Origin: Escherichia coli
GTDB taxonomy: Bacteria > Pseudomonadota > Gammaproteobacteria > Enterobacterales > Enterobacteriaceae
Reading direction: 5' to 3' (one strand)
Assembly: GCF_001677475.2 (NCBI RefSeq)
Contig: NZ_CP015229.1
DNA length: 64,000 nucleotides
Part shown: piece after piece, positions 1,922 through 57,661 of the stretch
Position numbering within the stretch: the stretch's first letter is position 1
Layout: each line of letters begins with the position of its first letter
The notes under the pieces: generated by a model
Seen by the model: the letters and a program-made list of their open reading frames with translations, nothing else
Database searches by the model: none
Told to the model about the DNA's origin: nothing
Position numbers and translations under genes: made by a program

Positions 1922-1951
1922 CTCACTAACGCCCTCAATCCTTTGAGTTTT

Positions 1952-2515: not shown

Positions 2516-2523
2516 TGCTCCGG

Positions 2524-12249: not shown

Positions 12250-12289
12250 TGTTAACTCCGGTTATTTCGATTGCCGGACAAACGCGAAA

Positions 12290-12350
12290 AAGAACCTTTA
12301 GCGGGTGTTTCCCCTCACCCTAACCCTCTCCCCGGAGGGGCGAGGGGACC
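12290..12350. repeat. GC-rich palindromic repeat (possibly boxC-type) in the hybF-hybG spacer
   Basis: cccctcaccctaaccctctccccggaggggcgaggggacc contains interlocking inverted repeats. Confidence 0.4.
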
Positions 12351-12382
12351 GTCCGTGCGCTTTTCAAGCGTTGTCCTCAGTC

Positions 12383-38147: not shown

Positions 38148-38284
38148 TAATTCTGATTCCTCAACTTATTCGCCAGCCTTCAAAGGGGCAATATTGCCGG
38201 AGATACTACATTATCTGCCGCGTCGAGTCACAGGAGATCAGCGTGAATAGCGCCGCCGGACGTGCTCCGACGGCGATAAAGGCA

Positions 38285-39892
38285 TCAATGTGCCTTGATA
38301 TACAACTCTTTGCTGTAGACATAATCCTGGGGATTATGCAGCGGAAAACCGCCAACGTAGGGTTTAAGCAGTTTGATTAACGGCTGATAGTAGATAGGAA
38401 TCAGCGGTGCCTGTTGGTTGATGATCACTTCTGCCTGCTGATACAACGCATTACGCTTTGTCGCATCAGTGATCTGCGTGGCCTGGTTTAGTAAGGCGTC
38501 ATACTGCGCATTTTTCCAGTGACCGACGTTTTCTTCACTATCGCTTTTGAGCGTGTTCAGGAAGCTGGAAGCATCATTGTACGTCGTATCCCACGACTGC
38601 CGAGACAGCATGAAATCACCGGCTCGTCGGGCATCAAGATAGGTTTTCCACTCCATTGTACGCAGCGTCACCTGTGCACCCAGCCATTTTTTCCATTCGG
38701 AAGACAACGCTATCGCGGTCTTTTCATGCAGATCGTACTTGTTGTAGAACAGCTCAAAGCGTAGCGGATGAGAGGCGTCGTATCCCGCCTGTTTCAGCAA
38801 GGCTTTTGCCATCGCGACGCGCTCACTCATTGGCTTTTGCAGTTCATCGAACGTCGTCGTGCTAAAGCCTTTTACCTCTGGCGGCGTCAGCGTGGTTGCG
38901 GGCGTTCTCAACCCCAGTACCTTTTGCGCAATAAGCTGTCGATCAACCGTAAGATATAGCGCCCGACGCACTCGCACATCGTTAAATGGCGGTTTCTCAA
39001 GGTTAAAGTTGTAATATTCGCTGTTCAGACGCGGGATAATTCGTAGCTCGCCAGGCAGTGATTTTTCAATGGCAGGAATTTGCTGCGCCGGAACCCAGGT
39101 GAGATCGACCTCTCCCGCGCGATAGCGGTTATAGCCGGTGACCGAATTATCCAGCGCCAGATACTCAACTTGTTGCAATACTGTATGTTGCGCATCGCGG
39201 TACTTTGGATTTTTGCGTGCAGTAATCTTTTCGTTAACTACCCACTGTTCAAGCACAAAGGCACCGTTGTAAACCATGTTCTCTGGCTTACTCCAGCTAT
39301 CGCCATGTTTAGCGATGACATGATGAGGAACCGGGAACAGCGTCGGCCAGGCGAGCATCGTCGTGAACCAAGGAACCGGCTGCTCAAGCGTAACTTCAAG
39401 AGTACGATCATCCGTCGCTTTGACACCCAGCGATGTAACATCTGCTTTACCCGCAACAATAGCCGCGGCATTGTTAATGTGCGCCTGTGCCAGATAGCCA
39501 GCAAAAGGGCTTGCCGTTTTCGGGTCAACCGCGCGCTGCCAGCCGAGGACAAAATCCTCTGCCGTCAAAGGCTGACCGTCTGACCACTGCAAACCGCTAC
39601 GCAGATGGAAAATATAGCGCTTGCCGCCGTCCAGTATCTCCCAGCGTTCAGCCTGAGCGGGCTGCACCTGGCCTTCACCGTCCATCCATACCAGACCTTC
39701 AAACAGATCCAGCACAATCTGCGCGGCAGTATTCTCCTCCACCTTTTGCGGGTCGAGCGTACCTGGGTCGCTATGATTGTTGTAACGAAAGACTTGTTGC
39801 GGGGCGAGCGGTGTGTTGGCGGGAACGTCAGCAGCGTAGAGAGGTGCCGCACTTACCAGGCTGACCAGCCATAATAAATTTCGCGTATACAT
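38285..39892 (-). CDS. ygiS: Periplasmic oligopeptide-type ABC substrate-binding protein (535 aa)
   Basis: Family 5 SBP with signal peptide; start at internal Met (MYTRNLLW). Confidence 0.88.
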   Translation of the reverse strand: MYTRNLLWLVSLVSAAPLYAADVPANTPLAPQQVFRYNNHSDPGTLDPQKVEENTAAQIVLDLFEGLVWMDGEGQVQPAQAERWEILDGGKRYIFHLRSGLQWSDGQPLTAEDFVLGWQRAVDPKTASPFAGYLAQAHINNAAAIVAGKADVTSLGVKATDDRTLEVTLEQPVPWFTTMLAWPTLFPVPHHVIAKHGDSWSKPENMVYNGAFVLEQWVVNEKITARKNPKYRDAQHTVLQQVEYLALDNSVTGYNRYRAGEVDLTWVPAQQIPAIEKSLPGELRIIPRLNSEYYNFNLEKPPFNDVRVRRALYLTVDRQLIAQKVLGLRTPATTLTPPEVKGFSTTTFDELQKPMSERVAMAKALLKQAGYDASHPLRFELFYNKYDLHEKTAIALSSEWKKWLGAQVTLRTMEWKTYLDARRAGDFMLSRQSWDTTYNDASSFLNTLKSDSEENVGHWKNAQYDALLNQATQITDATKRNALYQQAEVIINQQAPLIPIYYQPLIKLLKPYVGGFPLHNPQDYVYSKELYIKAH

Positions 39893-40000
39893 GGTATTCC
39901 TTACCGGAGAAATTATAAGCCCAATAACAATACGCCTGTGGCATTGTTCGCTCAAACTTATCGCGAGTGATTTGGCTCACACTCCGGTAAAGATTCCCCA

Positions 40001-40483
40001 TCACGCTAACGGTACATAAACATCCGTTTCCAGTCGCTGCTCTGTCACCCCTTCGGCAAGATTGGTGTAGTGAAACAGAATCGGTGCTTTACGCATTTTC
40101 TCGCCGCTTGCAGGCAGCCAGTGGCGAATAATGCCCCATATCGTGTGTGAAATATCGTCCAGCTCGCCAACATGGCGGGTAACAGCATAACGCCCACCGG
40201 TAAGTTCGCCATTACTCACGCCATAACGATTATCGGGGATCGGTTCGCTAACGCTGCCGCAGATATCAAAGCGAAACGCTTCCGGTGCGGTGGTGGCAGG
40301 GTCGTCCCAGGCGACGCCAAAAGTCTGGCTTTGGTTAACAGGAGAAAGCCCCGTCTCTTTACGCCACATGATAAATTTCGCCACGCTGTAGTTGAGCAAC
40401 TCAGGGCTACAGCGGTGCGGCAACATCGCCACAGGGATTGATGGGAAATCGATAATATTTACATCCAGTGTCAGGTTTGTCAT
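40001..40483 (-). CDS. ygiV: GyrI-like small-molecule-binding domain protein (160 aa)
   Basis: SbmC/GyrI-like fold; position upstream of ygiW. Confidence 0.85.
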   Translation of the reverse strand: MTNLTLDVNIIDFPSIPVAMLPHRCSPELLNYSVAKFIMWRKETGLSPVNQSQTFGVAWDDPATTAPEAFRFDICGSVSEPIPDNRYGVSNGELTGGRYAVTRHVGELDDISHTIWGIIRHWLPASGEKMRKAPILFHYTNLAEGVTEQRLETDVYVPLA

Positions 40484-40535
40484 TTTGCCTCCCTGCGAAA
40501 TTATTCCCGGGAACGCGTCCCGGGAGCGGTAACAA

Positions 40536-40928
40536 TTACGGATTTACTTTGCGGATCTGTTTGACGTCAATTTCAACAGAATTCCAGTCTTTATCGACTT
40601 CCCCCTGAATCTCAACCGTATCTTTCGGCGTCACCGTCACGCCGTTCCAGCGTTTGTGGTCGATATCAACATTGATAGTACCGCTGGCATCTTTGAACAC
40701 GTAGAGATCGTCAGAGATGCGTTCAACGATATTGCCGCGCAGGGTTACCCAGGTGTCGTCACGCAGGGATTTTGCGCTTTCTACAGTCGTTACGCTGCCA
40801 TTCGGCCCCTGGAATCCTCCGGCCTGACTTTGCGTTGCCGATGGGCCAGAAAAACCGCCCTGCTCTGCTGCCATCACCGGTGCGCTGCACAGGGCCATTA
40901 CTGCGATTACTGCTGCGAATTTTTTCAT
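40536..40928 (-). CDS. ygiW: BOF (OB-fold) periplasmic stress protein (130 aa)
   Basis: Signal peptide MKKFAAVIAVMALCSAPVMA. Confidence 0.9.
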   Translation of the reverse strand: MKKFAAVIAVMALCSAPVMAAEQGGFSGPSATQSQAGGFQGPNGSVTTVESAKSLRDDTWVTLRGNIVERISDDLYVFKDASGTINVDIDHKRWNGVTVTPKDTVEIQGEVDKDWNSVEIDVKQIRKVNP

Positions 40929-41079
40929 GTTTATTACTCCCTTTAATGTCTGTTTCCGAGCATTTAACAAGATAGTCCTTAACAACTTCTTAAGGGAAAA
41001 AAATAAAATTTAATGCTGTACAGAGCGCGTTACAACACGGTTTACTGGCAGCAAATACGGTTATCGCAGGGATGAAAAA

Positions 41080-41739
41080 ATGCGAATTTTACTGATAGAA
41101 GATGACATGCTGATTGGCGACGGCATCAAAACGGGCCTTAGTAAAATGGGTTTTAGCGTCGACTGGTTTACACAAGGTCGTCAGGGAAAAGAGGCGCTAT
41201 ACAGCGCACCTTATGATGCGGTGATCCTGGATTTAACCTTACCAGGCATGGATGGTCGCGATATTTTGCGCGAATGGCGAGAAAAAGGTCAGCGTGAGCC
41301 GGTATTGATCCTGACCGCGCGCGATGCGCTGGCGGAACGTGTAGAAGGGCTGCGTCTGGGAGCTGACGATTATCTGTGTAAACCTTTTGCGTTGATAGAA
41401 GTCGCCGCCAGGCTAGAAGCTCTGATGCGCCGAACCAACGGCCAGGCCAGCAACGAGCTGCGCCACGGCAACGTCATGCTCGACCCCGGCAAACGTATCG
41501 CCACACTGGCTGGCGAACCCTTAACGCTGAAACCAAAAGAATTTGCCCTGCTGGAATTACTGATGCGTAACGCTGGTCGGGTACTGCCGCGCAAACTGAT
41601 TGAAGAGAAACTGTATACCTGGGACGAAGAGGTCACCAGTAATGCCGTTGAAGTGCATGTGCATCATCTGCGACGCAAACTCGGCAGTGATTTTATTCGT
41701 ACCGTTCATGGTATTGGCTACACATTAGGTGAGAAATGA
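41080..41739 (+). CDS. qseB: Two-component response regulator, OmpR family (219 aa)
   Basis: [15 protein letters not shown] receiver domain plus winged helix. Confidence 0.96.
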
Positions 41740-43085
41740 AATTTACCCAACGTCTTAGTCTGCGAGTCAGGCTGACGCTAATCTTTTTAATTCTGGCCTC
41801 GGTGACCTGGCTGCTTTCCAGCTTTGTCGCCTGGAAACAAACAACGGATAACGTCGATGAGTTGTTCGACACCCAACTGATGCTGTTTGCCAAACGGTTA
41901 AGTACGCTCGATCTCAACGAAATCAACGCGGCAGATCGCATGGCACAGACGCCAAATAAATTAAAACACGGTCATGTTGATGACGATGCGCTGACCTTTG
42001 CCATCTTTACCCACGACGGCAGAATGGTCCTTAACGATGGCGATAACGGAGAAGATATTCCCTATAGCTATCAGCGGGAAGGTTTTGCTGACGGGCAACT
42101 GGTCGGTGAAGACGATCCCTGGCGTTTTGTCTGGATGACCTCACCTGATGGCAAATATCGCATCGTTGTTGGTCAGGAATGGGAATACCGCGAAGACATG
42201 GCGCTGGCGATTGTTGCCGGGCAATTGATCCCGTGGCTGGTCGCACTGCCGATTATGTTAATCATCATGATGGTACTACTGGGTCGTGAACTCGCGCCGC
42301 TGAACAAACTGGCGCTGGCACTACGTATGCGTGACCCTGACTCGGAAAAACCACTAAACGCGACGGGCGTACCTAGCGAAGTGCGTCCACTGGTTGAGTC
42401 GTTGAATCAACTGTTCGCCCGCACACATGCGATGATGGTTCGTGAACGACGCTTTACCTCCGACGCAGCTCACGAACTACGTAGCCCGTTAACGGCGCTG
42501 AAAGTGCAAACCGAAGTTGCGCAGCTCTCTGACGATGATCCGCAGGCGCGGAAAAAAGCGCTGCTTCAATTACATTCCGGAATCGATCGCGCTACTCGTC
42601 TGGTTGATCAACTGCTCACGCTATCGCGGCTGGACTCACTGGATAACCTTCAGGACGTCGCGGAGATCCCGCTTGAAGATCTCCTGCAATCGTCGGTGAT
42701 GGATATTTACCACACGGCGCAGCAGGCGAAAATTGACGTGCGACTGACACTCAATGTCCAGGGCATCAAACGCACCGGACAACCGCTATTGCTAAGTTTG
42801 TTGGTGCGAAACCTTCTGGATAACGCCGTGCGTTACAGTCCACAGGGTAGCGTGGTAGACGTCACGCTGAATGCCGATAATTTCATCGTGAGGGATAACG
42901 GCCCCGGTGTGACGCCAGAGGCACTGGCGCGAATTGGCGAACGCTTCTATCGCCCACCCGGGCAAACCGCTACCGGCAGTGGACTTGGGCTATCGATTGT
43001 CCAGCGAATCGCCAAATTGCATGGCATGAATGTTGAGTTTGGGAATGCGGAACAAGGTGGATTTGAGGCGAAGGTAAGCTGGTAA
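41736..43085 (+). CDS. qseC: Sensor histidine kinase (449 aa)
   Basis: H-box AAHELRSPL; 4-nt overlap with qseB. Confidence 0.96.
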
Positions 43086-43194
43086 GGGTAAGACTTTTGC
43101 TAAATTCGCAAAAGACTTTGCACATTTTGCTAATTTCACCGTACCGCTCTGTGACGTACTATAGTCGACAAACGTCTCACCTTGAGGTTAAAAA

Positions 43195-43776
43195 ATGAGC
43201 AACATCCTGATTATCAACGGCGCGAAAAAATTCGCCCACTCCAATGGTCAACTGAACGACACCCTGACCGAAGTCGCGGATGGCACACTGCGCGACCTCG
43301 GGCATGATGTCCGCATCGTTCGCGCCGACAGCGACTACGATGTCAAAGCGGAAGTACAAAACTTTCTCTGGGCTGATGTGGTGATCTGGCAGATGCCAGG
43401 CTGGTGGATGGGCGCGCCGTGGACAGTGAAAAAATACATTGATGATGTATTCACCGAAGGTCACGGGACTCTGTATGCCAGCGATGGTCGTACCCGCAAA
43501 GATCCGTCGAAAAAATACGGCTCCGGCGGCCTGGTACAGGGCAAAAAATATATGCTTTCTCTGACCTGGAACGCACCAATGGAAGCCTTCACCGAAAAAG
43601 ATCAGTTCTTCCACGGCGTTGGCGTTGACGGTGTGTATCTGCCGTTCCATAAAGCAAACCAATTCCTCGGTATGGAACCGCTGCCGACATTTATCGCTAA
43701 TGACGTGATAAAAATGCCTGATGTTCCCCGCTATACTGAAGAATATCGCAAGCATCTTGTGGAAATTTTTGGTTAA
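43195..43776 (+). CDS. mdaB: NADPH:quinone oxidoreductase, flavodoxin-like (193 aa)
   Basis: MSNILIINGAKKFAHSNGQLNDTL. Confidence 0.95.
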   Translation: MSNILIINGAKKFAHSNGQLNDTLTEVADGTLRDLGHDVRIVRADSDYDVKAEVQNFLWADVVIWQMPGWWMGAPWTVKKYIDDVFTEGHGTLYASDGRTRKDPSKKYGSGGLVQGKKYMLSLTWNAPMEAFTEKDQFFHGVGVDGVYLPFHKANQFLGMEPLPTFIANDVIKMPDVPRYTEEYRKHLVEIFG

Positions 43777-43806
43777 CTAGAGCTCAGGCTTTAGAAGGAG
43801 TTAACC

Positions 43807-44121
43807 ATGCTTACCGTAATCGCAGAAATCCGTACTCGTCCTGGTCAACATCACCGTCAGGCGGTATTGGATCAGTTTGCTAAAATCGTTCCAACCGTAC
43901 TGAAGGAAGAAGGTTGCCACGGCTATGCGCCGATGGTGGATTGCGCTGCTGGCGTGAGTTTCCAGTCTATGGCGCCGGACTCTATCGTGATGATTGAGCA
44001 GTGGGAAAGCATCGCGCATCTTGAAGCGCACTTGCAGACCCCGCACATGAAAGCGTACAGCGAGGCCGTAAAAGGCGATGTGCTGGAGATGAATATCCGC
44101 ATCCTGCAACCGGGGATTTAA
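43807..44121 (+). CDS. ygiN: Quinol monooxygenase, ABM domain (104 aa)
   Basis: MLTVIAEIRTRPGQHHRQAVLDQF. Confidence 0.95.
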   Translation: MLTVIAEIRTRPGQHHRQAVLDQFAKIVPTVLKEEGCHGYAPMVDCAAGVSFQSMAPDSIVMIEQWESIAHLEAHLQTPHMKAYSEAVKGDVLEMNIRILQPGI

Positions 44122-44130
44122 CATTCCTGA

Positions 44131-44158
44131 AAAGAGGCCGGTGTTGCTACCGGCCTCA
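44131..44158. terminator. Terminator hairpin at the left island junction (between ygiN and the island regulator gene)
   Basis: gaggccggt-gttgct-accggcctc; T-run on the minus strand. Confidence 0.6.
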
Positions 44159-44165
44159 GGTCAGA

Positions 44166-45053
44166 TTAGCCATTCTTTCTTCCCGTTTTCAAACCCCGAT
44201 GGAAATCGTTAATTCGCTTAATGGTTTTAACCGCACGCTGCGGCATCGCGGAAGCCACCGACCAGACAATCATTTCCAGGCACAACAATACCGTACCATG
44301 TAGTGGCGTTTTCCCCTTTTCATCCCCGCGCGGAACATGAATCACGATACTGGCGTCTTTGCTAAAACGTGAATCCAGCGCGTTTGTCAGCAAAATAACA
44401 GGGATCCCCAGCCGCCTCGCCTCACGAAGCGTTGTCAGCCCTTCCCGGTGCGCAGATTTTTGCGCCATCATGATCAGAACATCGCCACGTTGAAGCGCGA
44501 TCAGTTGCTCGGCAAGGCCAATACCCGTACGGTTTAGTGCCGTGGCAGGCAAACCTATGCGGTTGAATAGTCGTGCGGTATAGTCCGCCAGAATACCCGA
44601 AGCGCCAATGCCAAAAATTGCGACTTGCCGTGCCTGCACCAACAACGCTACCGCTTGCGCAAGCGCGTGGCGGTTTTCAGGCTCTGACAGGACATTACAA
44701 GTATACAAATGCCCTTCAAGAACAAAGTCGATTGCGGTGTTAACATCGCTCGTCAAGTTACTCACCGTCGTAGACATCTTTTCGCTGGAACTAAGGGCTG
44801 GACCAAGCCACTGTTCCAGAGTGCGTCTCAGATCACGCAGCCCGGCAAACCCCAGAGCCTGTATAGCCCTGATAACTGTGGCATCGGAAGTGTTCAACGT
44901 GGCCGCAATTTCCATCGCCGTTTGCTCGAGTACCACTTCACGATGCTCATTAATGTAGCTTGCGACAGCTCTTAACCCAGGCGTTAACTGACTCGCGCGA
45001 GTGCGAAAACGCTCACCATAAATATCAACCCGCGTTTTGTCTTTCTGGATCAT
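44166..45053 (-). CDS. RpiR/MurR-family transcriptional regulator, HTH plus SIS domain (295 aa); candidate regulator of the adjacent iron-uptake genes
   Basis: N-terminal HTH (TAMEIAATLNTSDATVIRAIQALGFAGLRDL) and C-terminal sugar-isomerase-type domain; start overlaps the upstream SBP gene stop (4 nt). Confidence 0.8.
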   Translation of the reverse strand: MIQKDKTRVDIYGERFRTRASQLTPGLRAVASYINEHREVVLEQTAMEIAATLNTSDATVIRAIQALGFAGLRDLRRTLEQWLGPALSSSEKMSTTVSNLTSDVNTAIDFVLEGHLYTCNVLSEPENRHALAQAVALLVQARQVAIFGIGASGILADYTARLFNRIGLPATALNRTGIGLAEQLIALQRGDVLIMMAQKSAHREGLTTLREARRLGIPVILLTNALDSRFSKDASIVIHVPRGDEKGKTPLHGTVLLCLEMIVWSVASAMPQRAVKTIKRINDFHRGLKTGRKNG

Positions 45054-45997
45054 TTAGCCTCCGGTAGAGGTCGTCCCGCAATTTGTGATTGTATCTGCGC
45101 AGCCATCAGCCCCAGAGATGCAAAGGAGTTAGAAATCGCCTCTTCACGAGAAATCAGCACATAGCGCCCGGAACGACAGGCCGTCAGAAACTGACACCAT
45201 CCCGGCATGACTTTTTCCATTGCTGCCAGCTCATCCTGAGGTTTACCACCGGTGTCACCGCGCCAGGTTGCAAAAACAAAATCGGCATCCAGTTCAGGTA
45301 AACGCTCTGCGCTCACATCCATTCGCCCACCTTCAGGAATGCTCTCAATCAGCGGCGGAAAGCGAAAACCAGCATCGCGTAATACCCGCCCCAGCGAATG
45401 ATAGCTATGCATCACATTAATTTTTCCCTGATTTGCCTGAATCACCGATACCGTTATTTTTTGGCTGTCCAGCGTCGCCTTCAGCGCATTGATTTGTGCC
45501 TGATAGCGGCGTTCAAGTATCGCCAGCTGCGACTGCGTTCCTGTAAGTTCTGCCAGCTTGCGGTAGATTTCTGGCGCGCCTCCTTTGAGATGATCAATGC
45601 TCACCGTGGGCGCAATTTTTTCCAGTTGTTCAATGGGCGTATTACGGGTCGGTTCTGTGATGATCAGGTCAGGCTTTGCCGCCACAATCGCTTCAATATC
45701 AATATCAGCGGTGCCAATAAAAGCGATCGATGAATTATCAAAGTCGACACCTGTCAATAACGCGCCTGATCGAATGAAATGGCTACCGTCAGGCCGGGTT
45801 CGCCCGTGGCTGGCGACAGGAGGTACACCGAGCTCAATCAGAGGAATAGTGATATCAAGATCGTGTAAAGAGACAATTCTCTTTGGATGAGCAGGAACAG
45901 TGACTTTGCGCCCTAAATCATCAGTAAAGACCTGAACAGGTTCTGTCGCGCGGGCAAAGAATGACAACAGTATCAGCAGAGAAAAAAATAAACGCAT
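45050..45997 (-). CDS. Periplasmic iron-siderophore ABC substrate-binding protein, FecB/FhuD-like
   Basis: Signal peptide MRLFFSLLILLSFFARA; cluster-8 SBP architecture. Start at Met22 of track ORF to avoid overlap with the upstream permease. Confidence 0.8.
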   Translation of the reverse strand: MRLFFSLLILLSFFARATEPVQVFTDDLGRKVTVPAHPKRIVSLHDLDITIPLIELGVPPVASHGRTRPDGSHFIRSGALLTGVDFDNSSIAFIGTADIDIEAIVAAKPDLIITEPTRNTPIEQLEKIAPTVSIDHLKGGAPEIYRKLAELTGTQSQLAILERRYQAQINALKATLDSQKITVSVIQANQGKINVMHSYHSLGRVLRDAGFRFPPLIESIPEGGRMDVSAERLPELDADFVFATWRGDTGGKPQDELAAMEKVMPGWCQFLTACRSGRYVLISREEAISNSFASLGLMAAQIQSQIAGRPLPEAK

Positions 45998-46007
45998 ATA
46001 ACTCCCA

Positions 46008-47057
46008 TTAAAAACTGTTCCTGCGCTGCCAGAGCAGTAGCAAAAAGAATGGTCCACCAATCAATGAAATAATGATTCCGGCAGGCAGTTGCAAAGGCAA
46101 AAAAGCCAAACGACCAATGCTATCCGCCAGGATGACTAACAACGCCCCCGATACGGCGCTCCCCAGCAGTAATGTCGTCTGCCCGCCACGTAGAATAAAA
46201 CGTGATATATGGGGTGCTATCAATCCGACAAAACCGATGTTACCAACACACGAAACGCAGACGGCTGTCAGGATTATTGGTGCGGCGACACGTAACAACG
46301 CCAGACGAGAACTATTCACCCCTAACCCGGTTGCAACCTGATGACCAAGCAGAGCGATATCCGCCGTCCTGGCGGTGAACAGCAATAAAAGAGCGGCTGG
46401 CAACATCCAACAGGCTGAAATACCGACTAACATCCAGTTAGCTGCATGCAGGCTTCCCGATAACCACATCAATGCAGTTTGTACATCTCGAACATCTGCA
46501 GTGGTCATAAATACACCGATACCGGCGGCGAAAAACCAGGAAACACCAATACCAATCAGAACAAATCGCGGGCGGGAAATATCGCGTGCACAAAAAATCA
46601 CGATTAAAGCCACCAACAAGCCACCAGCAAGACCAGCCACTGGACGCCAGAACATTCCCAGCATTGGAAACTGGAAGATCAGCCACAGCACCGCCACGCT
46701 ACATCCTTCTTTGACGCCGATTAAACCAGGATCGGCAAGGCCGTTACGCGCAATGGATTGCATCGCGGCCCCCGCCATACCTAACATGGCTCCGCATAGC
46801 AATGCCATGATGACTCTCGGCAAGCGAATATCCTGCACAATATAACGTGCGTCTGTGCTTACGTTTTCTGGAGCAAACAACGCTCGTCCTACTTCCGATG
46901 CCGGGACAGAAAAAGAACCATGCATCAGACCGAATATCAGTATTCCAACCGCAAACAGAAACAGCCCACCAAGCAACACCAGATTTTTAGGGCGTACCAG
47001 TGTCGAAAACTTACCAACACGTAGTGGACGTAGCCCGACGTTCATTATCCGACTCAT
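46008..47057 (-). CDS. Iron-siderophore ABC permease, FecCD family (349 aa)
   Basis: Polytopic membrane protein with FecCD-type glycine-rich helices. Confidence 0.85.
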   Translation of the reverse strand: MSRIMNVGLRPLRVGKFSTLVRPKNLVLLGGLFLFAVGILIFGLMHGSFSVPASEVGRALFAPENVSTDARYIVQDIRLPRVIMALLCGAMLGMAGAAMQSIARNGLADPGLIGVKEGCSVAVLWLIFQFPMLGMFWRPVAGLAGGLLVALIVIFCARDISRPRFVLIGIGVSWFFAAGIGVFMTTADVRDVQTALMWLSGSLHAANWMLVGISACWMLPAALLLLFTARTADIALLGHQVATGLGVNSSRLALLRVAAPIILTAVCVSCVGNIGFVGLIAPHISRFILRGGQTTLLLGSAVSGALLVILADSIGRLAFLPLQLPAGIIISLIGGPFFLLLLWQRRNSF

Positions 47058-48037
47058 TTGAACATCCTCGTCGCCATAATGACAAAAACAGGCGCACCAA
47101 CTAACGCCGTCATGACACCGGTCGCTAACTCATGGGGCGTGAAAAGCGTCCGAGCAATAATATCTGCCAGTAATAACAAAAGCGCGCCGACACAAGCTGA
47201 AAGAGGGAGCAGAACGCGCAGATCCGCTGATACCAGACGCCTGACAATCTGCGGTACTAGCAGGCCGACAAAACCAATGGGGCCAGCAATCGATACGGCT
47301 GCGCCACAGAGCAACGCGATCGCAAGCAGAGTGAATGTTCGCGTGCGGAGTACCGAGACGCCCAGCCCCTGCGCCATGCGATCACCCAGTGCCAACATGT
47401 TAAGAGAGGGCGCAAGGTAAATGGCTAACACAACCCCCCCCAGAGAAAACCAGGCGGACGTACCCAGCGTCGCCCAATCCTGCCCCGCTAAATCACCTGC
47501 TAGCCATGTCCGCATCGCCAGCAGTGTTTGTTCGTCAAGAATCAGGATTGCAGCCGTTATTGAGGACACGAACGCCGATAGCGCCACGCCGCATAAAGTA
47601 ACTTTCATTGGCGTTAACCCTGAACGCCCTGCGGAGGAAAGCAGCAATATCAACAGGAACAATAACGCGCCCCCCGTAGATGCCAGCAGTGGGCGTCCAA
47701 CCGGAAAGGCCAGTCCAAGCGCACTGGCGGCAACGACAGCAAGAGCGGCTCCGGCATTTAAGCCTAAAATATGTGGCTCCCCCAATGGGTTACGAATGAC
47801 AGCCTGCAACAAAGCACCAGCAACTCCAAGAGAAGCACCGGTAAGCAATGCTGCCGCTAAACGCGGCAAACGGAGTCTTACAATTACGTTGTGATCGAAG
47901 TTTTGCGGTTCAAAATGAAGAAATGCCTGCAACACCGTTTGTGGTGCAATAAATCGGGCACCAATCCCTGGATATACCACGCATCCCACCAGCAGTAAGG
48001 CGAGGAAAATTACAGTAACCAGCCCTGTGCGCATCAT
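47054..48037 (-). CDS. Iron-siderophore ABC permease, FecCD family (327 aa)
   Basis: Paralogous to the adjacent permease; 4-nt overlaps on both sides. Confidence 0.85.
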   Translation of the reverse strand: MMRTGLVTVIFLALLLVGCVVYPGIGARFIAPQTVLQAFLHFEPQNFDHNVIVRLRLPRLAAALLTGASLGVAGALLQAVIRNPLGEPHILGLNAGAALAVVAASALGLAFPVGRPLLASTGGALLFLLILLLSSAGRSGLTPMKVTLCGVALSAFVSSITAAILILDEQTLLAMRTWLAGDLAGQDWATLGTSAWFSLGGVVLAIYLAPSLNMLALGDRMAQGLGVSVLRTRTFTLLAIALLCGAAVSIAGPIGFVGLLVPQIVRRLVSADLRVLLPLSACVGALLLLLADIIARTLFTPHELATGVMTALVGAPVFVIMATRMFK

Positions 48038-48843
48038 ACTTTTTCTACACCACGAAACGGCATGAAGAACGGCTTTCCCGTCAGAGGATTTATTGATGCG
48101 TGAACATCAACGTCAAAGACAGCTTTTACCAGCTCAGGCGTGCAATGCTCCCCCTCATTCAACACACGCACCACTTTCCCCTGGCGTAAAAATATCAACG
48201 TATCGCCATAATTGACGGCAAAATTCAGATCATGCAACACCACGACGACTGTACGCCCGTGATGACGCGTTAAGTCATGTAATAACTCAAGAATTTCAAC
48301 CTGATAACGTAAATCAAGCCAGGTTGTGGGTTCATCCAGCAGGATATAAGGCGTCTTTTGCGCCAACACCATCGCAATCCAGCAACGCTGGCGCTGCCCA
48401 CCAGAGAGTTTTTCAACCGGTAAATGTGCAAACTCCTGCGTACCGGTTAATTTCAGGGCCTCTTCTACCGCCTGCTCGTCGGCGTCGCTCCATTGACGTA
48501 TGAAATTTTGCCAGGGAAAACGCCCACGCGACACCAGTTCATAAACGGTTAAGCCCTCCGGCAATAATGGCGACTGCGGCAAGATCCCAAGTCTACGGGA
48601 TAACGCTTTCGTTGGTTGCTCGTGAATCGCTTTACCATCCAGCAATATAGAGCCGCCCATAGGCTGCAAGATACGTGCAATGGTGCTGAGCAACGTCGAC
48701 TTTCCACAGCCGTTTGCCCCAACCAGAACGGTCATTTTTTCTGTGGGAACGGAGAAAGAAACACCATCAACAATGATCTTCTTGTGATACCCGGCAGAAA
48801 CATTGTCGAGGATCAGCCCCTGCCCTTTTGCGTTATGTGCCAC
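48034..48843 (-). CDS. Iron-siderophore ABC ATPase, FecE/FepC-like (269 aa)
   Basis: Walker A GANGCGKST, signature LSGGQRQR, Walker B ILLDEP. Confidence 0.9.
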   Translation of the reverse strand: MAHNAKGQGLILDNVSAGYHKKIIVDGVSFSVPTEKMTVLVGANGCGKSTLLSTIARILQPMGGSILLDGKAIHEQPTKALSRRLGILPQSPLLPEGLTVYELVSRGRFPWQNFIRQWSDADEQAVEEALKLTGTQEFAHLPVEKLSGGQRQRCWIAMVLAQKTPYILLDEPTTWLDLRYQVEILELLHDLTRHHGRTVVVVLHDLNFAVNYGDTLIFLRQGKVVRVLNEGEHCTPELVKAVFDVDVHASINPLTGKPFFMPFRGVEKV

Positions 48844-49216
48844 GTGTACGCCAACTTAATCAAAGACAAACAAAAATAAAACTCATTCTCTTTTGAGAGT
48901 TTGACGCCACAAAATGTAGTAGTCAAGAAGTTAAAATCCATACAAAAACAAGGTAAATAACAGGTGAAATATTTTTAAAGATAAAAATAAAATCATTAAA
49001 TATTAATAAATTACCATCAATTAAATTGCATTAACCTCTCATAAAAACACATGTAGCAATTTTTTGTTATTTCTCATTTACTACTACATTACCGCATGGT
49101 TGAATGATTCTCAATTACATATCCGATGGTGAAATAACAAACGGATAGTGCTTAGTGAGCAACAAGAAACAATTTTCACTCACGACAATCCGTGAGTTTT
49201 TGGGATAACAGACTAA
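48844..49216. promoter_or_regulatory. AT-rich divergent promoter region of the iron-uptake island with candidate Fur boxes
   Basis: 373-bp AT-rich spacer; ttgaatgattctcaattac and aaaatcattaaatattaat resemble the Fur-box consensus. Confidence 0.45.
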
Positions 49217-51358
49217 ATGGCTAAGTTCACACCTTCATTCTCAGGAATCAAAGGTCGGGCGCTCTTTTCACTGCTCTTTGCAGCACCGATGATTCATGCA
49301 ACCGACACTGCAACGACCAAAGATGGCGAAACAATCACTGTTACAGCGGATGCAAATACCGCAACTGAGGCGACCGATGGTTATCAACCTCTGAGCACCT
49401 CCACGGCGACATTAACCGATATGCCGATGCTGGATATCCCGCAAGTGGTCAATACGGTTAGCGATCAGGTTCTGGAAAATCAGAATGCGACGACGCTGGA
49501 TGAGGCACTTTATAACGTCAGTAACGTGGTACAGACCAATACATTAGGCGGAACTCAGGACGCCTTTGTACGTCGTGGGTTTGGTGCTAACCGGGATGGC
49601 TCCATCCTGACCAACGGTCTGCGAACCGTACTTCCTCGCAGCTTCAACGCTGCAACAGAACGTGTGGAAGTGCTAAAAGGCCCGGCCTCCACGCTGTATG
49701 GCATTCTTGATCCTGGCGGACTGATTAACGTCGTGACAAAGCGCCCGGAAAAAACATTCCATGGTTCTGTATCAGCCACGTCCTCCAGTTTTGGCGGAGG
49801 CACTGGGCAACTGGATATCACAGGTCCCATTGAAGGCACTCAGCTGGCATACCGCCTGACGGGGGAAGTGCAGGATGAAGATTACTGGCGGAATTTCGGT
49901 AAAGAGCGCAGCACATTTATTGCCCCATCACTCACCTGGTTTGGTGATAATGCAACAGTAACCATGCTCTATTCACATCGGGATTATAAAACGCCGTTCG
50001 ATCGTGGAACGATTTTCGACCTTACGACGAAACAGCCCGTAAACGTTGATCGAAAAATACGTTTCGACGAACCGTTTAATATTACAGATGGTCAGTCCGA
50101 TCTGGCGCAACTCAACGCAGAATATCATCTCAATAGCCAGTGGACAGCGCGCTTTGATTACAGCTACAGCCAGGATAAATACAGCGATAATCAGGCTCGT
50201 GTTACCGCGTATGATGCAACGACAGGAACGCTGACACGGCGTGTTGATGCAACTCAGGGATCTACCCAGCGTATGCATTCTACTCGTGCGGATCTACAAG
50301 GGAATGTTGATATTGCTGGATTCTATAATGAGATTCTGGGTGGGGTGTCATATGAATATTATGATCTTCTGCGGACAGATATGATCCGCTGTAAAAACGC
50401 TAAAGATTTCAATATCTACAACCCTGTTTATGGCAATACCAGCAAATGCACAACGGTCTCGGCGTCGGACAGCGATCAGACGATCAAACAAGAGAGCTAC
50501 TCAGCATATGCGCAAGATGCGCTCTATCTGACCGATAACTGGATTGCCGTCGCTGGGATCCGCTATCAGTATTACACGCAGTATGCGGGTAAAGGCCGTC
50601 CTTTTAATGTCAATACTGACAGCCGCGATGAACAATGGACGCCCAAACTGGGGTTGGTCTACAAACTGACGCCATCGGTATCCTTATTTGCCAATTATTC
50701 GCAAACATTTATGCCGCAATCGTCAATTGCCAGCTACATTGGCGATCTTCCACCGGAATCATCTAATGCTTACGAAGTCGGGGCAAAAGTCGAGCTGTTC
50801 GATGGTATAACCGCAGATATTGCGCTGTTTGATATCCATAAACGTAACGTGTTGTATACCGAAAGTATTGGTGATGAAACCATCGCCAAAACGGCAGGCC
50901 GCGTTCGTTCAAGAGGGGTAGAAGTCGACCTTGCGGGAGCATTAACTGAAAACATTAATATCATTGCCAGCTACGGCTATACCGATGCTAAGGTTCTGGA
51001 AGATCCTGATTATGCAGGGAAACCATTGCCGAATGTTCCTCGTCATACCGGTTCGCTATTCCTGACCTATAACATTCATAACATGCCAGGCAATAACACA
51101 CTGACGTTTGGCGGTGGTGGACATGGCGTAAGCCGTCGTTCGGCAACCAATGGGGCTGACTATTATCTGCCAGGCTATTTCGTTGCCGATGCCTTCGCCG
51201 CATACAAAATGAAATTGCAGTATCCGGTCACACTGCAATTAAACGTCAAAAACCTATTTGATAAAACGTATTACACCTCTTCCATCGCCACAAATAATCT
51301 GGGGAATCAGATTGGCGATCCGCGTGAAGTGCAATTCACGGTGAAAATGGAATTTTGA
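49217..51358 (+). CDS. TonB-dependent outer membrane siderophore receptor (713 aa)
   Basis: TonB box ETITVTA after the signal peptide; plug domain and C-terminal aromatic terminus (VKMEF). Confidence 0.9.
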   Translation: MAKFTPSFSGIKGRALFSLLFAAPMIHATDTATTKDGETITVTADANTATEATDGYQPLSTSTATLTDMPMLDIPQVVNTVSDQVLENQNATTLDEALYNVSNVVQTNTLGGTQDAFVRRGFGANRDGSILTNGLRTVLPRSFNAATERVEVLKGPASTLYGILDPGGLINVVTKRPEKTFHGSVSATSSSFGGGTGQLDITGPIEGTQLAYRLTGEVQDEDYWRNFGKERSTFIAPSLTWFGDNATVTMLYSHRDYKTPFDRGTIFDLTTKQPVNVDRKIRFDEPFNITDGQSDLAQLNAEYHLNSQWTARFDYSYSQDKYSDNQARVTAYDATTGTLTRRVDATQGSTQRMHSTRADLQGNVDIAGFYNEILGGVSYEYYDLLRTDMIRCKNAKDFNIYNPVYGNTSKCTTVSASDSDQTIKQESYSAYAQDALYLTDNWIAVAGIRYQYYTQYAGKGRPFNVNTDSRDEQWTPKLGLVYKLTPSVSLFANYSQTFMPQSSIASYIGDLPPESSNAYEVGAKVELFDGITADIALFDIHKRNVLYTESIGDETIAKTAGRVRSRGVEVDLAGALTENINIIASYGYTDAKVLEDPDYAGKPLPNVPRHTGSLFLTYNIHNMPGNNTLTFGGGGHGVSRRSATNGADYYLPGYFVADAFAAYKMKLQYPVTLQLNVKNLFDKTYYTSSIATNNLGNQIGDPREVQFTVKMEF

Positions 51359-51400
51359 TCAAAAAAGCCCGGTATACACTTGTATACCGGGCTATGTTTT
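51359..51400. terminator. Bidirectional rho-independent terminator at the right island junction (receptor gene / parE)
   Basis: agcccggtataca...tgtataccgggct perfect inverted repeat flanked by A-run and T-run. Confidence 0.7.
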
Positions 51401-51421
51401 ATTCTTCTGGCGGGAGGATTA

Positions 51422-53317
<1,896 letters not shown>

Positions 53318-53342
53318 TTAAGTTAGCAATTCGAGTTGATCG

Positions 53343-53924
53343 TCAGAGATGGTGCAGACCAAGAAAATCGACGATCGGGTTGAAATAATCTTCGAAGCCC
53401 GTGAATGCGTGGTTGCCGCCTTCTATGACAGTCTGGCGGCAGGAAGCGTAGTACGCCACCGCCTGGCGGTAATCCAGCACTTCATCTCCCGTCTGTTGCA
53501 GCAGCCAGATCAAATCCGGCGCTTCCAGCGGGTCAATCTGCATGACTTTGAGATCGTAAATATGGCGTGACTCTAGCACATATTGCTGCCCGGTGTAGGG
53601 GTTCTCGTTCTGACCGAGATAGTCCGTCAGCAGTTCAAACGGGCGTACCGCCGGGTTTACCACCACTGCGGGCAGCATAAAACATTGCGACAACCAGGTG
53701 GCGTAATATCCCCCCAGTGACGAACCGACAATACCCAGCGAATCGCCGCCATGTTCCAGGACAATGGATTCCAGCAGTTCTGCCGCGTCGGAAGGATACG
53801 GCGGCAACTGCGGAATGATCATCTCTACGTCAGGGTGATGTTCCGCCAACCAGTTTTTTAACAAGCTCGCTTTTGCAGAGCGCGGCGAGCTGTTGAAACC
53901 GTGTAAATAAAGAAGCGTAGACAT
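53343..53924 (-). CDS. yqiA: Alpha/beta-fold esterase (193 aa)
   Basis: [19 protein letters not shown]; GSSLGG nucleophile elbow. Confidence 0.93.
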
Positions 53925-54751
53925 CAGTAGCCTTCTGAAGCGGTATCAGGTTGGAAACGTGTGTCCGCCAGGCGATGCACCTCGGTGGTCAGCGTGCCAT
54001 CAGCATGTAACTCGAGAGTACGCCAGCCGGGCGCGATGGTGTCCAGCGTAAAGTTGGAACAGTGCGGCTTAAACTGCACACAGGTCGACGGTGTTGCCAG
54101 CAGGCGGCGACCGTTCCAGTCGAGATCCAGCTCCTGATGAATATGACCGCACAGCAAGTATTTGACGTGCGGAAACTTCGCCAGCACGGTATCCAGTTCG
54201 CCCGCATTACGCAGGCTGTGTTGGTCAAGCCAACTACAACCCGCAGGTAGCGGATGATGATGCAGCAGCAGCAACGTATGGCGTTCTGGCGCATCGGCCA
54301 GTTTACGTTCCAGCCACTCAAGCTGAAACTCGCTCAGCTCACCGTGCGGCACGCCAAACACCTGGCTATCCAGCAACAGGATTTGCCATTGCTCACCAAT
54401 AAACACCCGCTTCGCCGGGGAGATACCCGCATCCTGTAACGCGCTGTACATCGCGGGCTGGAAATCGTGGTTGCCCGGCAGCCAGACGCAGGGCGCACGA
54501 AAACTTGCGATGCCTTCAGCGAAATGCTGATAGGCCGCAGAGGATTGATCCTGCGCTAAATCACCTGTCGCGACAATCAGGTCGAATTCGTGCTGGTGTG
54601 GCCGAATCGCCTCCAGCACCGCCTGGTAGCTTTCCCAGGTGTTTACCCCTAACAGGGCTTCGTGCTTTTGCGCAAACAGGTGAGTGTCGGTAATTTGTAA
54701 AATCCTGACTCTGGCCTCACCAGCCAGAGGAAGGGTTAACAGGCTTTCCAA
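53924..54751 (-). CDS. cpdA: 3',5'-cyclic AMP phosphodiesterase (275 aa)
   Basis: Metallophosphoesterase motifs (DTH, GDL, GNHD). Confidence 0.95.
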
Positions 54752-54775
54752 ATGGTGTCCTTAGGTTTCACGACG

Positions 54776-55198
54776 CTAGTAAACCGGAATCGCCATCGCT
54801 CCATGTGCTAAACAGTATCGCAACCAGTCCGCTAGAAACTGATTAATTTGATGCTTTTCGTCGCGTTGATGCAACTTTTTATTAGGATAATCATACCGCG
54901 CTTTGAAGCGAAAAATCTGCTGGCTTGAACACACTTCAGCCACCATCGCGTCATGATACAGACGCACCGTCATTGACGGAAGGCTCCAGTAACTGATAGC
55001 GGGCGCAGTCTGTTCTATTGTCACCAGGGTAGTGTATCGGGTCGATTCCACAATCGTTAGCCGATATTGTGCGTTTGCCACCTGATAGCTTACAGTTTCG
55101 CCGGGTGCGTCATTGCGCGGCAACAAACGGCGCAATTGTGAAAAGTTCATCTCGCACAGGCGCATCATTTCAGGAAAGTCAGGTGTGTAACGCTTCAT
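54776..55198 (-). CDS. yqiB: DUF1249 protein (140 aa)
   Basis: Length and position match K-12 yqiB. Confidence 0.9.
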
Positions 55199-55828
55199 TT
55201 ATGCCCACTCATTTTTTAACGCTTGATGATGCAGCTGCAGCCATTGCAAAGCGATGACCGACGCTGCGTTGTCGATTTTCCCCTCTTCTACCCACTGGTA
55301 TGCCTGTTCCCGGCTTACCACATGAACGCGAATATCTTCGTTTTCATCAGCCAGACCGTGAATACCGCTTGCGGTCGTGGCGTCCACTTCGCCCACCATA
55401 ATTGACGAACGCTCACTGGTGCCCCCCGGGCTTGCCAGGAAACTTAACACCGGTTTGGTCCGTTTGACTATCAGTCCCGCCTCTTCAATCGCTTCGCGAC
55501 GGGCAACATCTTCCACACTTTCACCCTCTTCAATCATCCCGGCAACCATCTCCAGTAGCCAGGGGGTTTCGCTGGTGTCGTACGCGGCAATCCGAATCTG
55601 CTCAATCAGCACAACTTCATCACGCACTGGGTCAAAGGGTAGCAAGACTGCGGCGTGACCGCGCTCAAAAATTTCCCGCCGTACCTCATGACTCATTTGC
55701 CCGTTGAATAGACGATGACGAAATCTATAAAGATCTAATGAAAAAAAGCCGCGATAAAGTGTTTCTCGTGCAATAATTTCTACATCGTTTTTGCCAAATG
55801 TAACGGGCAGGTTGTCTGGCTTAAGCAT
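55199..55828 (-). CDS. nudF: ADP-ribose pyrophosphatase, Nudix hydrolase (209 aa)
   Basis: Nudix box ...REAIEEAGL.... Confidence 0.95.
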
Positions 55829-56032
55829 TGTTAATGTCCTGGCACTAATAGTGAATTAAATGTGAATTTCAGCAACGTTTGACTGCCGTTTGAGCAGTCA
55901 TGTGTTAAATTGAGGCACATTAACGCCCTATGGCACGTAACGCCAACCTTTTGCGGTAGCGGCTTCTGCTAGAATCCGCAATAATTTTACAGTTTGATCG
56001 CGCTAAATACTGCTTCACCACAAGGAATGCAA
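55829..56032. promoter_or_regulatory. Divergent nudF / tolC promoter region
   Basis: Intergenic region upstream of tolC; regulated by MarA/SoxS/Rob and EvgA/PhoP in E. coli (established knowledge, sites not mapped here). Confidence 0.4.
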
Positions 56033-57514
56033 ATGAAGAAATTGCTCCCCATTCTTATCGGCCTGAGCCTTTCTGGGTTCAGTTCGTTGAGCCAGGCCGA
56101 GAACCTGATGCAAGTTTATCAGCAAGCACGCCTTAGTAACCCGGAATTGCGTAAGTCTGCCGCCGATCGTGATGCTGCCTTTGAAAAAATTAATGAAGCG
56201 CGCAGTCCATTACTGCCACAGCTAGGTTTAGGTGCAGATTACACCTATAGCAACGGCTACCGCGACGCGAACGGCATCAACTCTAACGCGACCAGTGCGT
56301 CCCTGCAGTTAACTCAATCCATTTTTGATATGTCGAAATGGCGTGCGTTAACGCTGCAGGAAAAAGCAGCAGGGATTCAGGACGTCACGTATCAGACCGA
56401 TCAGCAAACCTTGATCCTCAACACCGCGACCGCTTATTTCAACGTGTTGAATGCTATTGACGTTCTTTCCTATACACAGGCGCAAAAAGAAGCGATCTAC
56501 CGTCAATTAGATCAAACCACCCAACGTTTTAACGTGGGCCTGGTAGCGATCACCGACGTGCAGAATGCCCGCGCACAGTACGATACCGTGCTGGCGAACG
56601 AAGTGACCGCACGTAATAACCTTGATAACGCGGTAGAGCAGCTGCGCCAGATCACCGGTAACTACTATCCGGAACTGGCGGCGCTGAATGTCGAAAACTT
56701 TAAAACCGACAAACCGCAGCCGGTTAACGCGCTGCTGAAAGAAGCCGAAAAACGCAACCTGTCGCTGTTACAGGCACGCTTGAGCCAGGACCTGGCGCGC
56801 GAGCAAATTCGCCAGGCGCAGGATGGTCACTTACCGACTCTGGATTTAACGGCTTCTACCGGGATTTCTGACACCTCTTATAGCGGTTCGAAAACCCGTG
56901 GTGCCGCTGGTACCCAGTATGACGATAGCAATATGGGCCAGAACAAAGTTGGCCTGAGCTTCTCGCTGCCGATTTATCAGGGCGGAATGGTTAACTCGCA
57001 GGTGAAACAGGCACAGTACAACTTTGTTGGTGCCAGCGAGCAACTGGAAAGCGCGCATCGTAGCGTCGTGCAAACCGTACGTTCCTCCTTCAACAACATT
57101 AATGCTTCTATCAGTAGTATTAACGCCTACAAACAAGCCGTAGTTTCCGCTCAAAGCTCATTAGACGCGATGGAAGCGGGCTACTCGGTCGGTACGCGTA
57201 CCATTGTTGATGTGTTGGATGCGACCACCACGCTGTACAACGCCAAGCAAGAGCTGGCGAATGCGCGTTATAACTACCTGATTAATCAGCTGAATATTAA
57301 GTCAGCCCTGGGTACGTTGAACGAGCAGGATCTGCTGGCACTGAACAATGCGCTGAGCAAACCGGTTTCCACTAACCCGGAAAACGTTGCCCCGCAAACG
57401 CCGGAACAGAATGCTATTGCTGATGGTTATGCACCTGATAGCCCGGCACCCGTCGTTCAGCAAACATCCGCACGCACTACCACCAGTAACGGTCATAACC
57501 CTTTCCGTAACTGA
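56033..57514 (+). CDS. tolC: Outer membrane efflux channel TolC (493 aa)
   Basis: MKKLLPILIGLSLSGFSSLSQAENLMQVYQQARLSNPELRKS. Confidence 0.97.
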   Translation: MKKLLPILIGLSLSGFSSLSQAENLMQVYQQARLSNPELRKSAADRDAAFEKINEARSPLLPQLGLGADYTYSNGYRDANGINSNATSASLQLTQSIFDMSKWRALTLQEKAAGIQDVTYQTDQQTLILNTATAYFNVLNAIDVLSYTQAQKEAIYRQLDQTTQRFNVGLVAITDVQNARAQYDTVLANEVTARNNLDNAVEQLRQITGNYYPELAALNVENFKTDKPQPVNALLKEAEKRNLSLLQARLSQDLAREQIRQAQDGHLPTLDLTASTGISDTSYSGSKTRGAAGTQYDDSNMGQNKVGLSFSLPIYQGGMVNSQVKQAQYNFVGASEQLESAHRSVVQTVRSSFNNINASISSINAYKQAVVSAQSSLDAMEAGYSVGTRTIVDVLDATTTLYNAKQELANARYNYLINQLNIKSALGTLNEQDLLALNNALSKPVSTNPENVAPQTPEQNAIADGYAPDSPAPVVQQTSARTTTSNGHNPFRN

Positions 57515-57661
57515 TGACGATGACGGGGCTTCGGCCCCGTCTGAACGTAAGGCAACGTAAAGATACGGGTTATCTGCCGCATTCTTCCCCCTTCTCGCTT
57601 CAATTTCGACCAGCCATCCTCTATTCTGATGGGTATTTACCACTGGTCCCGGAAGACAAAA

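Follow-up and report, generated by a model that had tools for sequence, protein, structure and literature searches.

The fit chelate-uptake locus at the ygiN-parE site of Escherichia coli: gene content, candidate regulatory sites and probable age

We analysed a 64,000-nucleotide stretch of DNA from Escherichia coli (RefSeq assembly GCF_001677475.2, contig NZ_CP015229.1), hereafter the window, in which positions 44122-51421, lying between the core genes ygiN and parE, had been proposed from the letters alone to be an iron-uptake island resembling the Fit (fitABCDER) system. Our results show that this segment is the chromosomal fit locus. We further hold with high confidence the reading as a whole, namely that the locus serves chelate uptake through a TonB-dependent receptor and an ATP-binding cassette (ABC) importer, is repressed by Fur and by its own regulator FitR, and is an old, vertically inherited resident of the ygiN-parE site. 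The genes and borders are as follows.

43807-44121, + strand: ygiN, the left flanking core gene, with whose stop codon the homology to K-12 ends
44122-44165, no strand: left junction spacer of 44 nt, with a GC-rich hairpin at 44134-44156
44166-45053, - strand: fitR, a MurR/RpiR-family repressor with HTH_6 and SIS domains, to which the published fitR primers map with 0-3 mismatches
45050-45997, - strand: fitE, a periplasmic binding protein of class III/cluster A with the signal peptide MRLFFSLLILLSFFARA
46008-47057, - strand: fitD, a FecCD-family permease
47054-48037, - strand: fitC, a FecCD-family permease
48034-48843, - strand: fitB, an ABC ATPase with a GTG start; best match FecE at 284.6 bits, cut-off 375
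49217-51358, + strand: fitA, a TonB-dependent outer-membrane receptor of 713 aa
51359-51421, no strand: right junction spacer of 63 nt, with a 12-bp hairpin at 51366-51393
51422-53314, - strand: parE, the right flanking core gene (TIGR01055, 1250 bits)

Six uninterrupted open reading frames (ORFs) separate ygiN from parE, with fitA divergent from fitB-fitC-fitD-fitE-fitR. Assignment of their products to families with NCBIfam and Pfam bore out the original prediction of a receptor divergent from genes for an ATPase, two permeases, a substrate-binding protein and a regulator. Two of the three 4-nt overlaps that it had listed are present (fitB/fitC at 48034-48037 and fitE/fitR at 45050-45053); the third, fitC/fitD at 47054-47057 (ATGA), exists only if fitD begins at its first ATG, a start at 47057 with GAGG 8 nt upstream. 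RefSeq places the start of fitD at 47045, 12 nt downstream of that ATG. When the window was aligned to 50 kb of K-12, homology ended at 44121 and restarted at 51426, so that the proposed limits are exact and 7,300 bp stand in place of the K-12 spacer. This spacer measures 47 bp, and not a little over 100 bp as originally stated.

Hairpin terminators had been proposed at both junctions, and both do fold strongly. The right hairpin (-22.7 to -23.8 kcal/mol, z -5 to -6) was picked up by a terminator scan in both directions, and is predicted to be an intrinsic terminator serving fitA on the + strand and parE on the - strand; the form AAAAAAGCCCGG...CCGGGC also occurs 3' of fitA in several Enterobacter-clade species. 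The left hairpin (-24.3 kcal/mol, z -4.4) has a tail of UUUUC on the - strand, the strand of fitR, and with only four U in it can be at best a weak terminator, as which it probably ends the fitBCDER transcript. The left junction spacer is identical in O157:H7 and carries few substitutions in two other Escherichia species.

The names of the genes were fixed by the primers published for fitA, fitB, fitC, fitD, fitE, fitR and the fit promoter of strain i484 (Ouyang & Isaacson 2008, PMC2593036 Table 2). All 18 map to the window with 0-3 mismatches, in the expected genes and orientations. The receptor gene is accordingly fitA and the ATPase gene fitB, the permeases are encoded by fitC and fitD, and fitE and fitR encode the binding protein and the regulator. 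The FitE of the window is near-identical to the crystallised protein of PDB entries 3BE5/3BE6 (E 3e-195, chain residues 1-297), of which 3BE6 is named as E. coli FitE (Ec-FitE) in PMC10553834. A table published in 2026 reads 'GR22 ygiN..parE, fit operon, 7193 bp' (PMC12928451), and in CFT073 the genes c3771-c3775 are the Fit pathway, which belongs to Fur's direct regulon (PMC7157518). On every point that could be tested the segment is thus the fit locus, already known and, as had been anticipated from its composition, not a new system. As a discovery this is modest: the system was reportedly first described and named by Ouyang & Isaacson in 2006, a study of its regulator followed in 2008, crystal structures of its binding protein are available, and its location between ygiN and parE has been published.

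The uptake proteins belong to well-defined families and fall short of every specific member of them. FitA scored 369.3 bits against TIGR01783 (TonB-dependent siderophore receptor), above the cut-off of 223.5; it has a signal peptide ending in ...MIHA (then TDT...) and a TonB-box-like ETITVTA, and carries no FecA-type N-terminal signalling extension. No receptor model of defined substrate (FhuA, FhuE, FoxA, Fiu, FecA, FauA, CirA, FepA, IreA, PqqU and others) was passed by FitA as an equivalog, the best scores being 236.9 bits for PRK14050 (cut-off 884), 228.7 for FhuA (cut-off 803) and 161.7 for FoxA (cut-off 1300). The nearest solved receptors, FetA, FoxA, CntO, FhuA and FptA, are about equally distant from it (best E 1e-48). 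The ABC parts gave strong matches at the family level (the permeases to FecC/FecD/FhuB/BtuC, the ATPase to FecE/FepC/FhuC and the binding protein to FepB/FecB), all below equivalog cut-offs, and are hence not Fec, Fep, Fhu or Btu itself; two FecCD permeases, an ABC ATPase and a class III binding protein together make a type II (FecCD/BtuCD-like) importer. In sum, neither the receptor nor any ABC component reached the equivalog cut-off of an NCBIfam model of defined substrate, and no component matches a system whose substrate is defined. Besides FitE itself, the nearest PDB relatives of FitE are YfiY and FhuD proteins (E 1e-13 to 1e-15). Judging from family membership, FitA would be the TonB-energised outer-membrane gate for a ferric chelate that the cell does not make, FitE would ferry this chelate through the periplasm, and import into the cytoplasm would fall to a type II, BtuCD-like importer in which FitC and FitD form a heterodimer served by two FitB ATPases.

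Siderophore biosynthesis genes were found neither within the module nor beside it in Citrobacter, Kosakonia, Kluyvera, Erwinia and Yokenella, where its neighbours are unrelated and variable. Since they are absent in every genus examined, the Fit ligand is probably a chelate that other organisms produce or that occurs in the host or diet. A PepSY_TM protein is encoded within the fit operon of Erwinia, Pantoea and Affinibrenneria. In Erwinia sp. JUb26 (L030:2600-5666) and Affinibrenneria (L032:2392-5512), three extra genes lie between fitE and fitR, one for a PepSY_TM protein (a FoxB-like putative ferric-chelate reductase) and two for PstS-family (PBP_like_2) periplasmic proteins, and Pantoea coffeiphila (L040) has a fitE-fitR gap of the same size as this insert.

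Both promoters of the locus lie in the intergenic DNA between fitA and fitB. FitR is known to be an autorepressor that binds this DNA: its over-expression represses both fit promoters, deletion of fitR de-represses them, and the intergenic fragment is shifted by the protein (PMC2593036). Fur and FitR act independently, with 23-fold (fur), 2.2-fold (fitR) and 52-fold (double mutant) effects (PMC2593036). We searched for the sites behind this control by aligning the intergenic regions and scanning 38 of them, from more than 12 genera. In the window the region contains the following features.

48844-49216, no strand: divergent fitB/fitA control region of 373 bp, with 80% A+T between the two inverted elements
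48872-48890, no strand: predicted Fur-box-like element 1, AAAAATAAAACTCATTCTC, on the fitB side, agreeing with the consensus at 13 of 19 positions
48915-48927, no strand: conserved element TGTAGTAGTCAAG, on the - strand CTTGACTACTACA, with the TTGACT -35 of fitB; candidate FitR operator
49075-49089, no strand: conserved element CATTTACTACTACAT, the inverted copy, with the TTTACT -35 of fitA; candidate FitR operator
49100-49118, no strand: predicted Fur box 2, TTGAATGATTCTCAATTAC, overlapping the predicted extended -10 (TGgTTGAAT) of fitA
49178-49197, + strand: fitA leader stem-loop, ACTCACG-ACAATC-CGTGAGT and then UUUU, its end 20 nt before the ATG

The published 'fit promoter' primers lie at 48837-48860 and 49174-49195. 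Both inverted elements have the form TT(G/T)ACTACTACA and are conserved, whereas the AT-rich DNA between them is poorly so; their exact 10-mer occurs at only these two places in the window, and the motif was not found in the literature searched. The first 12 nt of the fitB-side element, TGTAGTAGTCAA, are invariant in 38/38 regions (its last base is T in two loci), and so is the core of the fitA-side element, TTTACTACTACA. The -35 hexamers that they contain stand 17 bp upstream of TGgTTGAAT (TTTACT, fitA) and of CAAACT (TTGACT, fitB). Fur box 2 is tied to the fitA-side element just as strictly, its first 10 nt (TTGAATGATT) beginning exactly 19 nt past the start of CTACTACA in all 38 regions. 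The Fur-box-like element 1 ranks among the top two matches to the Fur consensus (0-2 substitutions) in about 30 of the 38, and was not recovered in several Kluyvera, Yokenella and Erwinia loci. Between the inverted elements the spacing is 165-167 bp in 20 regions and 187-189 bp in 18, that is, about 15.8 and 17.9 helical turns, and these classes differ by 21-22 bp, or two turns. Such spacing in near-whole turns probably sets both elements on the same face of the DNA. In the mechanism that we propose, Fur-Fe2+ would repress both promoters at Fur boxes over the -10/+1 regions, FitR would repress them through the two inverted elements over both -35 hexamers, and an oligomeric FitR could bridge the elements, held on one face of the helix.

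The regulator itself departs from its family at one point. FitR was recognised by Pfam through HTH_6 (1.3e-9) and SIS (1.3e-13), the domains of MurR/RpiR proteins, and keeps the GxGxS motif of SIS domains. It lacks the canonical loop SxSGx(S/T), reading AQKSAH where PDB 8K3B has SQSGRS and 4IVN has SSSGST, and at this loop (FitR residues 196-205) AQKS(A/P)HREG is conserved in the FitR of 11 orthologues, two of them with one substitution each. We take the aligned loop to be the phosphate-binding loop of the SIS domain. An effector is for this reason unlikely to be bound there as a classical phosphosugar, which suggests that FitR responds to something other than a phosphosugar.

The fitA leader holds a further conserved feature. 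At the position of the stem-loop, a stem of at least six contiguous pairs forms in 23 of 35 distinct leaders, compared with 6.7% of shuffles, through 21 different stem sequences; most of the remaining leaders form a stem with a bulge. Across orthologous leaders the structure ends 18-26 nt before the start codon, and a U-run follows it in Escherichia, Kluyvera, Yokenella and Citrobacter, and not in Erwinia. RNAalifold predicted no structure on a MAFFT alignment of the leaders, because the stems differ in sequence, and Rfam gave chance-level matches only over the island and none for the stem-loop. As far as compensatory changes between leaders can tell, the stem-loop is kept by covariation; it may act in attenuation or translation, or as a stabiliser.

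From these features a more ambitious picture can be drawn, which we put forward tentatively and would not yet bet on. The pocket of FitR, with its conserved Q-K-S-x-H-R-E-G loop, may have been rebuilt to sense something other than a classical phosphosugar, most obviously the imported chelate or a product of its breakdown; FitR may shut both promoters by bridging helically phased half-operators at the two -35 hexamers, and the fitA leader stem-loop may add control after initiation. Were this so, fit would be a xenosiderophore system that its substrate induces and that a looped complex represses, and the identity of FitR's effector would lead straight to the substrate, missing for 20 years.

How widely fit is carried was determined in 5,426 complete E. 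coli genomes, a carrier being a genome with at least 80% of an 8-kb query in one place. Carriers numbered 1,870 (34.5%), a K-12-type uninterrupted junction was present in 3,268 (60.2%), and about 287 had neither fit nor an empty junction. K-12 is without the six genes, and the description of the locus as accessory and lineage-restricted therefore stands. In the literature, fit carriers are placed among extraintestinal and adherent-invasive B2 lineages, and fit also serves as a strain marker. E. coli F437 has another cargo of about 8.3 kb alone at ygiN-parE (L047:3713-11956), made up of genes for an MFS transporter, a GntR regulator, an ADP-ribosylglycohydrolase, a SIS protein, a carbohydrate (sugar) kinase, a phytase-like esterase, a porin and a DUF2608 protein. 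In E. coli E166 (L045:11767-15676), fit is followed by the first genes of an F437-type cargo, at which the available sequence ends. These alternative contents make ygiN-parE a multi-allelic variable site.

The locus, absent from K-12, had been described as inserted. The island was compared with its flanks, both within the species and beyond it. Its identity among E. coli is 97.2-98.9%, against 96.2-99.6% for the flanks, and the corresponding values for two other Escherichia species are 94.5-94.6% and 92.4-96.5%. Both species have fit in this position too, and their junction spacers (44 and 63-64 nt) depart from those of the window by only a few substitutions. A scan for FitA in species-representative genomes recovered 39 loci, all with these six genes and an unchanged gene order. 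For Enterobacter, Lelliottia, Silvania and Huaxiibacter the chromosomal position is unchanged as well: fitA adjoins parE, and fitR adjoins ygiN where the sequence reaches that far, sometimes with extra DNA at either junction; nucleotide identity to this clade is about 73% for the island and 80-86% for the flanking housekeeping genes. Apart from fitD against O157 (0.35, with very few substitutions), every comparison of the fit genes gave a dN/dS below 0.15, so that on this measure they are under purifying selection. As originally noted, no integrase or transposase is found among the six island ORFs and no tRNA within 38000-58000. The two junctions share no att-like direct or inverted repeat of at least 7 nt.

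The simplest reading of these data is that fit has been at ygiN-parE since before E. coli diversified and was inherited vertically, and that the empty site of K-12 arose by loss, or by allele exchange through recombination in the flanks, loss being at least as likely as gain. We consider it highly unlikely that fit is instead a recent mobile genomic island, integrated site-specifically at ygiN-parE in pathogenic lineages. Such an origin would fit with the absence of the locus from K-12 and 60% of complete genomes, with the different cargo of F437 and the combined one of E166 at the same site, with a composition slightly below that of the flanks (GC content 49.3%, against 51.5% for the rest of the window; GC at third codon positions, GC3, 0.46-0.53 for fit genes and 0.56-0.63 for flanks) and with the presence of the module by unrelated genes in Citrobacter, Kosakonia, Kluyvera, Yokenella, Erwinia, Pantoea and Affinibrenneria. 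It does not account for an island that has diverged as far as its flanks, for spacers equal in length within 1 nt in two other Escherichia species, or for the same position in the Enterobacter clade at so low an identity, and the segment shows neither mobility genes, tRNA/att sites or repeats nor the anomalous composition or divergence expected of a mobile island. A recent insertion is hence unsupported. Some of the same observations do weigh against a purely vertical history. The GC3 values could mean an ancient foreign origin, the other loci in those genera imply that the module moved at some time, and the other cargo found in some strains leaves room for gain by flanking recombination. Moreover, the scan found no FitA match in the representative genomes of E. 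albertii, E. fergusonii and Salmonella, and if these are true absences vertical inheritance needs several losses. The 47-bp spacer of K-12 resembles the island junctions weakly (4-5 of 500 shuffles score equally, and shared stop codons raise the score) and is suggestive at most of a remnant of them.

The candidate operators and the substrate have to be weighed in the same way. We infer that the inverted elements are the FitR operators, separate from the Fur sites, an arrangement that matches the independent repression reported for the two proteins. They could also be an extended promoter (-35/UP-like) or the site of another factor, with FitR binding elsewhere in the region and the spacing reflecting promoter packing, and this we regard as a genuine possibility, if the lesser one. 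Each element does include a good -35 hexamer at 17 bp from a -10-like one, each is a non-palindromic half-site, unusual for RpiR-family dimers, and binding of FitR at the elements themselves is a prediction. However, a promoter would not call for at least 12 invariant bases, well beyond a -35 hexamer, nor for two discrete classes of spacing while the second element lies anywhere between 133 and 285 bp from the fitA ATG, and FitR represses both promoters and binds this very fragment (PMC2593036). As for the substrate, a ferric xenosiderophore is deduced from family membership and Fur control; no defined Fit substrate was found in the literature searched, and papers of 2018 and 2022, as the original prediction had supposed, still call it unknown, with enterobactin excluded. 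We find it very unlikely that Fit imports a non-siderophore cargo, be it another metal-metallophore (Co, Ni, Zn, Cd) or a sugar-derived compound, with the SIS regulator as a sign of carbohydrate metabolism. In favour of such a cargo, the metal-pseudopaline receptor CntO is among the best PDB matches of FitA (E 1e-47), one paper links fit to Fe2+, Co2+ and Cd2+ uptake, the family of FitR senses phosphosugars and the Erwinia-type loci add two PstS-family proteins. On the other hand, iron chelation induces fit expression, as does a fur mutation (PMC2593036), fit is a direct Fur target (PMC7157518), FitA passes TIGR01783, the ABC parts are closest to Fec, Fep and Fhu, the proteins nearest to FitE in the PDB are siderophore binders, and the canonical phosphate-binding loop is not kept in FitR.

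Several other differences were observed in the window. The 3' two-thirds of ygiN (43900-44121) carries 13-17 private differences in about 220 nt with respect to every compared E. coli; those to K-12 and O157 are all synonymous, the proteins being identical. The dS of the whole gene is about 0.3 to O157 and 21319, and 0.02-0.08 for the neighbouring mdaB. The divergent patch ends at the island junction, 44122-44181 being identical to O157 and U1, and its edge looks like a recombination breakpoint there. A second variable site, the qseC-mdaB spacer (43085-43195), lies 1 kb from the fit junction: ygiZ (DUF2645) is absent from it in the window and in O157:H7 and present in K-12, and U1 and 21319 have ygiZ together with an Hcp-family type VI effector and a hypothetical gene. 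The window lacks the mqsR-mqsA toxin-antitoxin pair (39993-39999), whose place in K-12 is the 928-bp interval separating ygiS and ygiV. Further away, positions 1-3628 do not align to the compared K-12 region, where IS5 adjoins a truncated yghQ; a 117-bp insertion relative to K-12 lies near hybG/yghU (12266-12383); and at 22992/22993, between yghA and exbD, the window lacks 234 bp that K-12 has. The highest identity to any of the 5,426 complete genomes is about 98.5-98.8% (20000-44100 and 43700-51700 compared), which is unusually distant for such a collection and probably reflects a poorly sampled Escherichia or Shigella-like lineage or else a strain of strongly mosaic make-up.

A Fur-controlled receptor without a defined substrate sits in a third of E. 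coli strains, O157:H7 included, and the conserved layout of operators, Fur boxes and leader hairpin offers precise targets for work on the mechanism and inducer of FitR. The comparison also cautions that 'absent from K-12' is not equal to 'inserted', fit being as old as its flanks.

Among known systems, Fhu of K-12 (FhuA with FhuCDB) shares the three-tier design of a receptor, a class III binding protein and a type II importer, and is likewise repressed by Fur; FhuA aligns with FitA over its full length (PDB E of about 1e-43, and the NCBIfam score given above). It differs in having a fused FhuB where Fit has two permease genes, Fit has its own repressor, and the Fhu equivalog cut-offs are widely missed. 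The ABC parts of Fit are most similar to those of Fec (FecABCDE with FecIR), namely FecE (284.6 bits), FecC (238.2) and FecD, below equivalog cut-offs, and both fec and fit have a regulator of their own besides Fur. Fec, however, works by surface signalling with an extracytoplasmic function (ECF) sigma/anti-sigma pair, and Fit is without these and uses a cytoplasmic RpiR-type repressor. FoxA is among the best PDB matches of FitA (E 1e-47), with similarity at the family level only, and FoxA/FoxB-type systems have a PepSY_TM reductase, whereas the fit locus of the window has no PepSY_TM gene and has a full ABC importer. FitR aligns end to end with solved MurR/RpiR/HexR repressors (E of about 1e-14) and, like them, represses a divergent operon pair; it differs in controlling a metal-chelate importer rather than sugar catabolism, and its candidate operators are distant half-sites and not a local palindrome. 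The closest comparison is with the fit system of E. coli i484 and CFT073 itself. The published fragment bound by FitR is the divergent promoter region of the window, in which the positions of operators, Fur boxes and leader hairpin are predictions made here and not found in the published fit papers examined. In gene content, order, orientation and position between ygiN and parE the locus of the window is the same as the published one, with no difference of substance, and its allele is 97-99% identical to those of the compared complete E. coli genomes.

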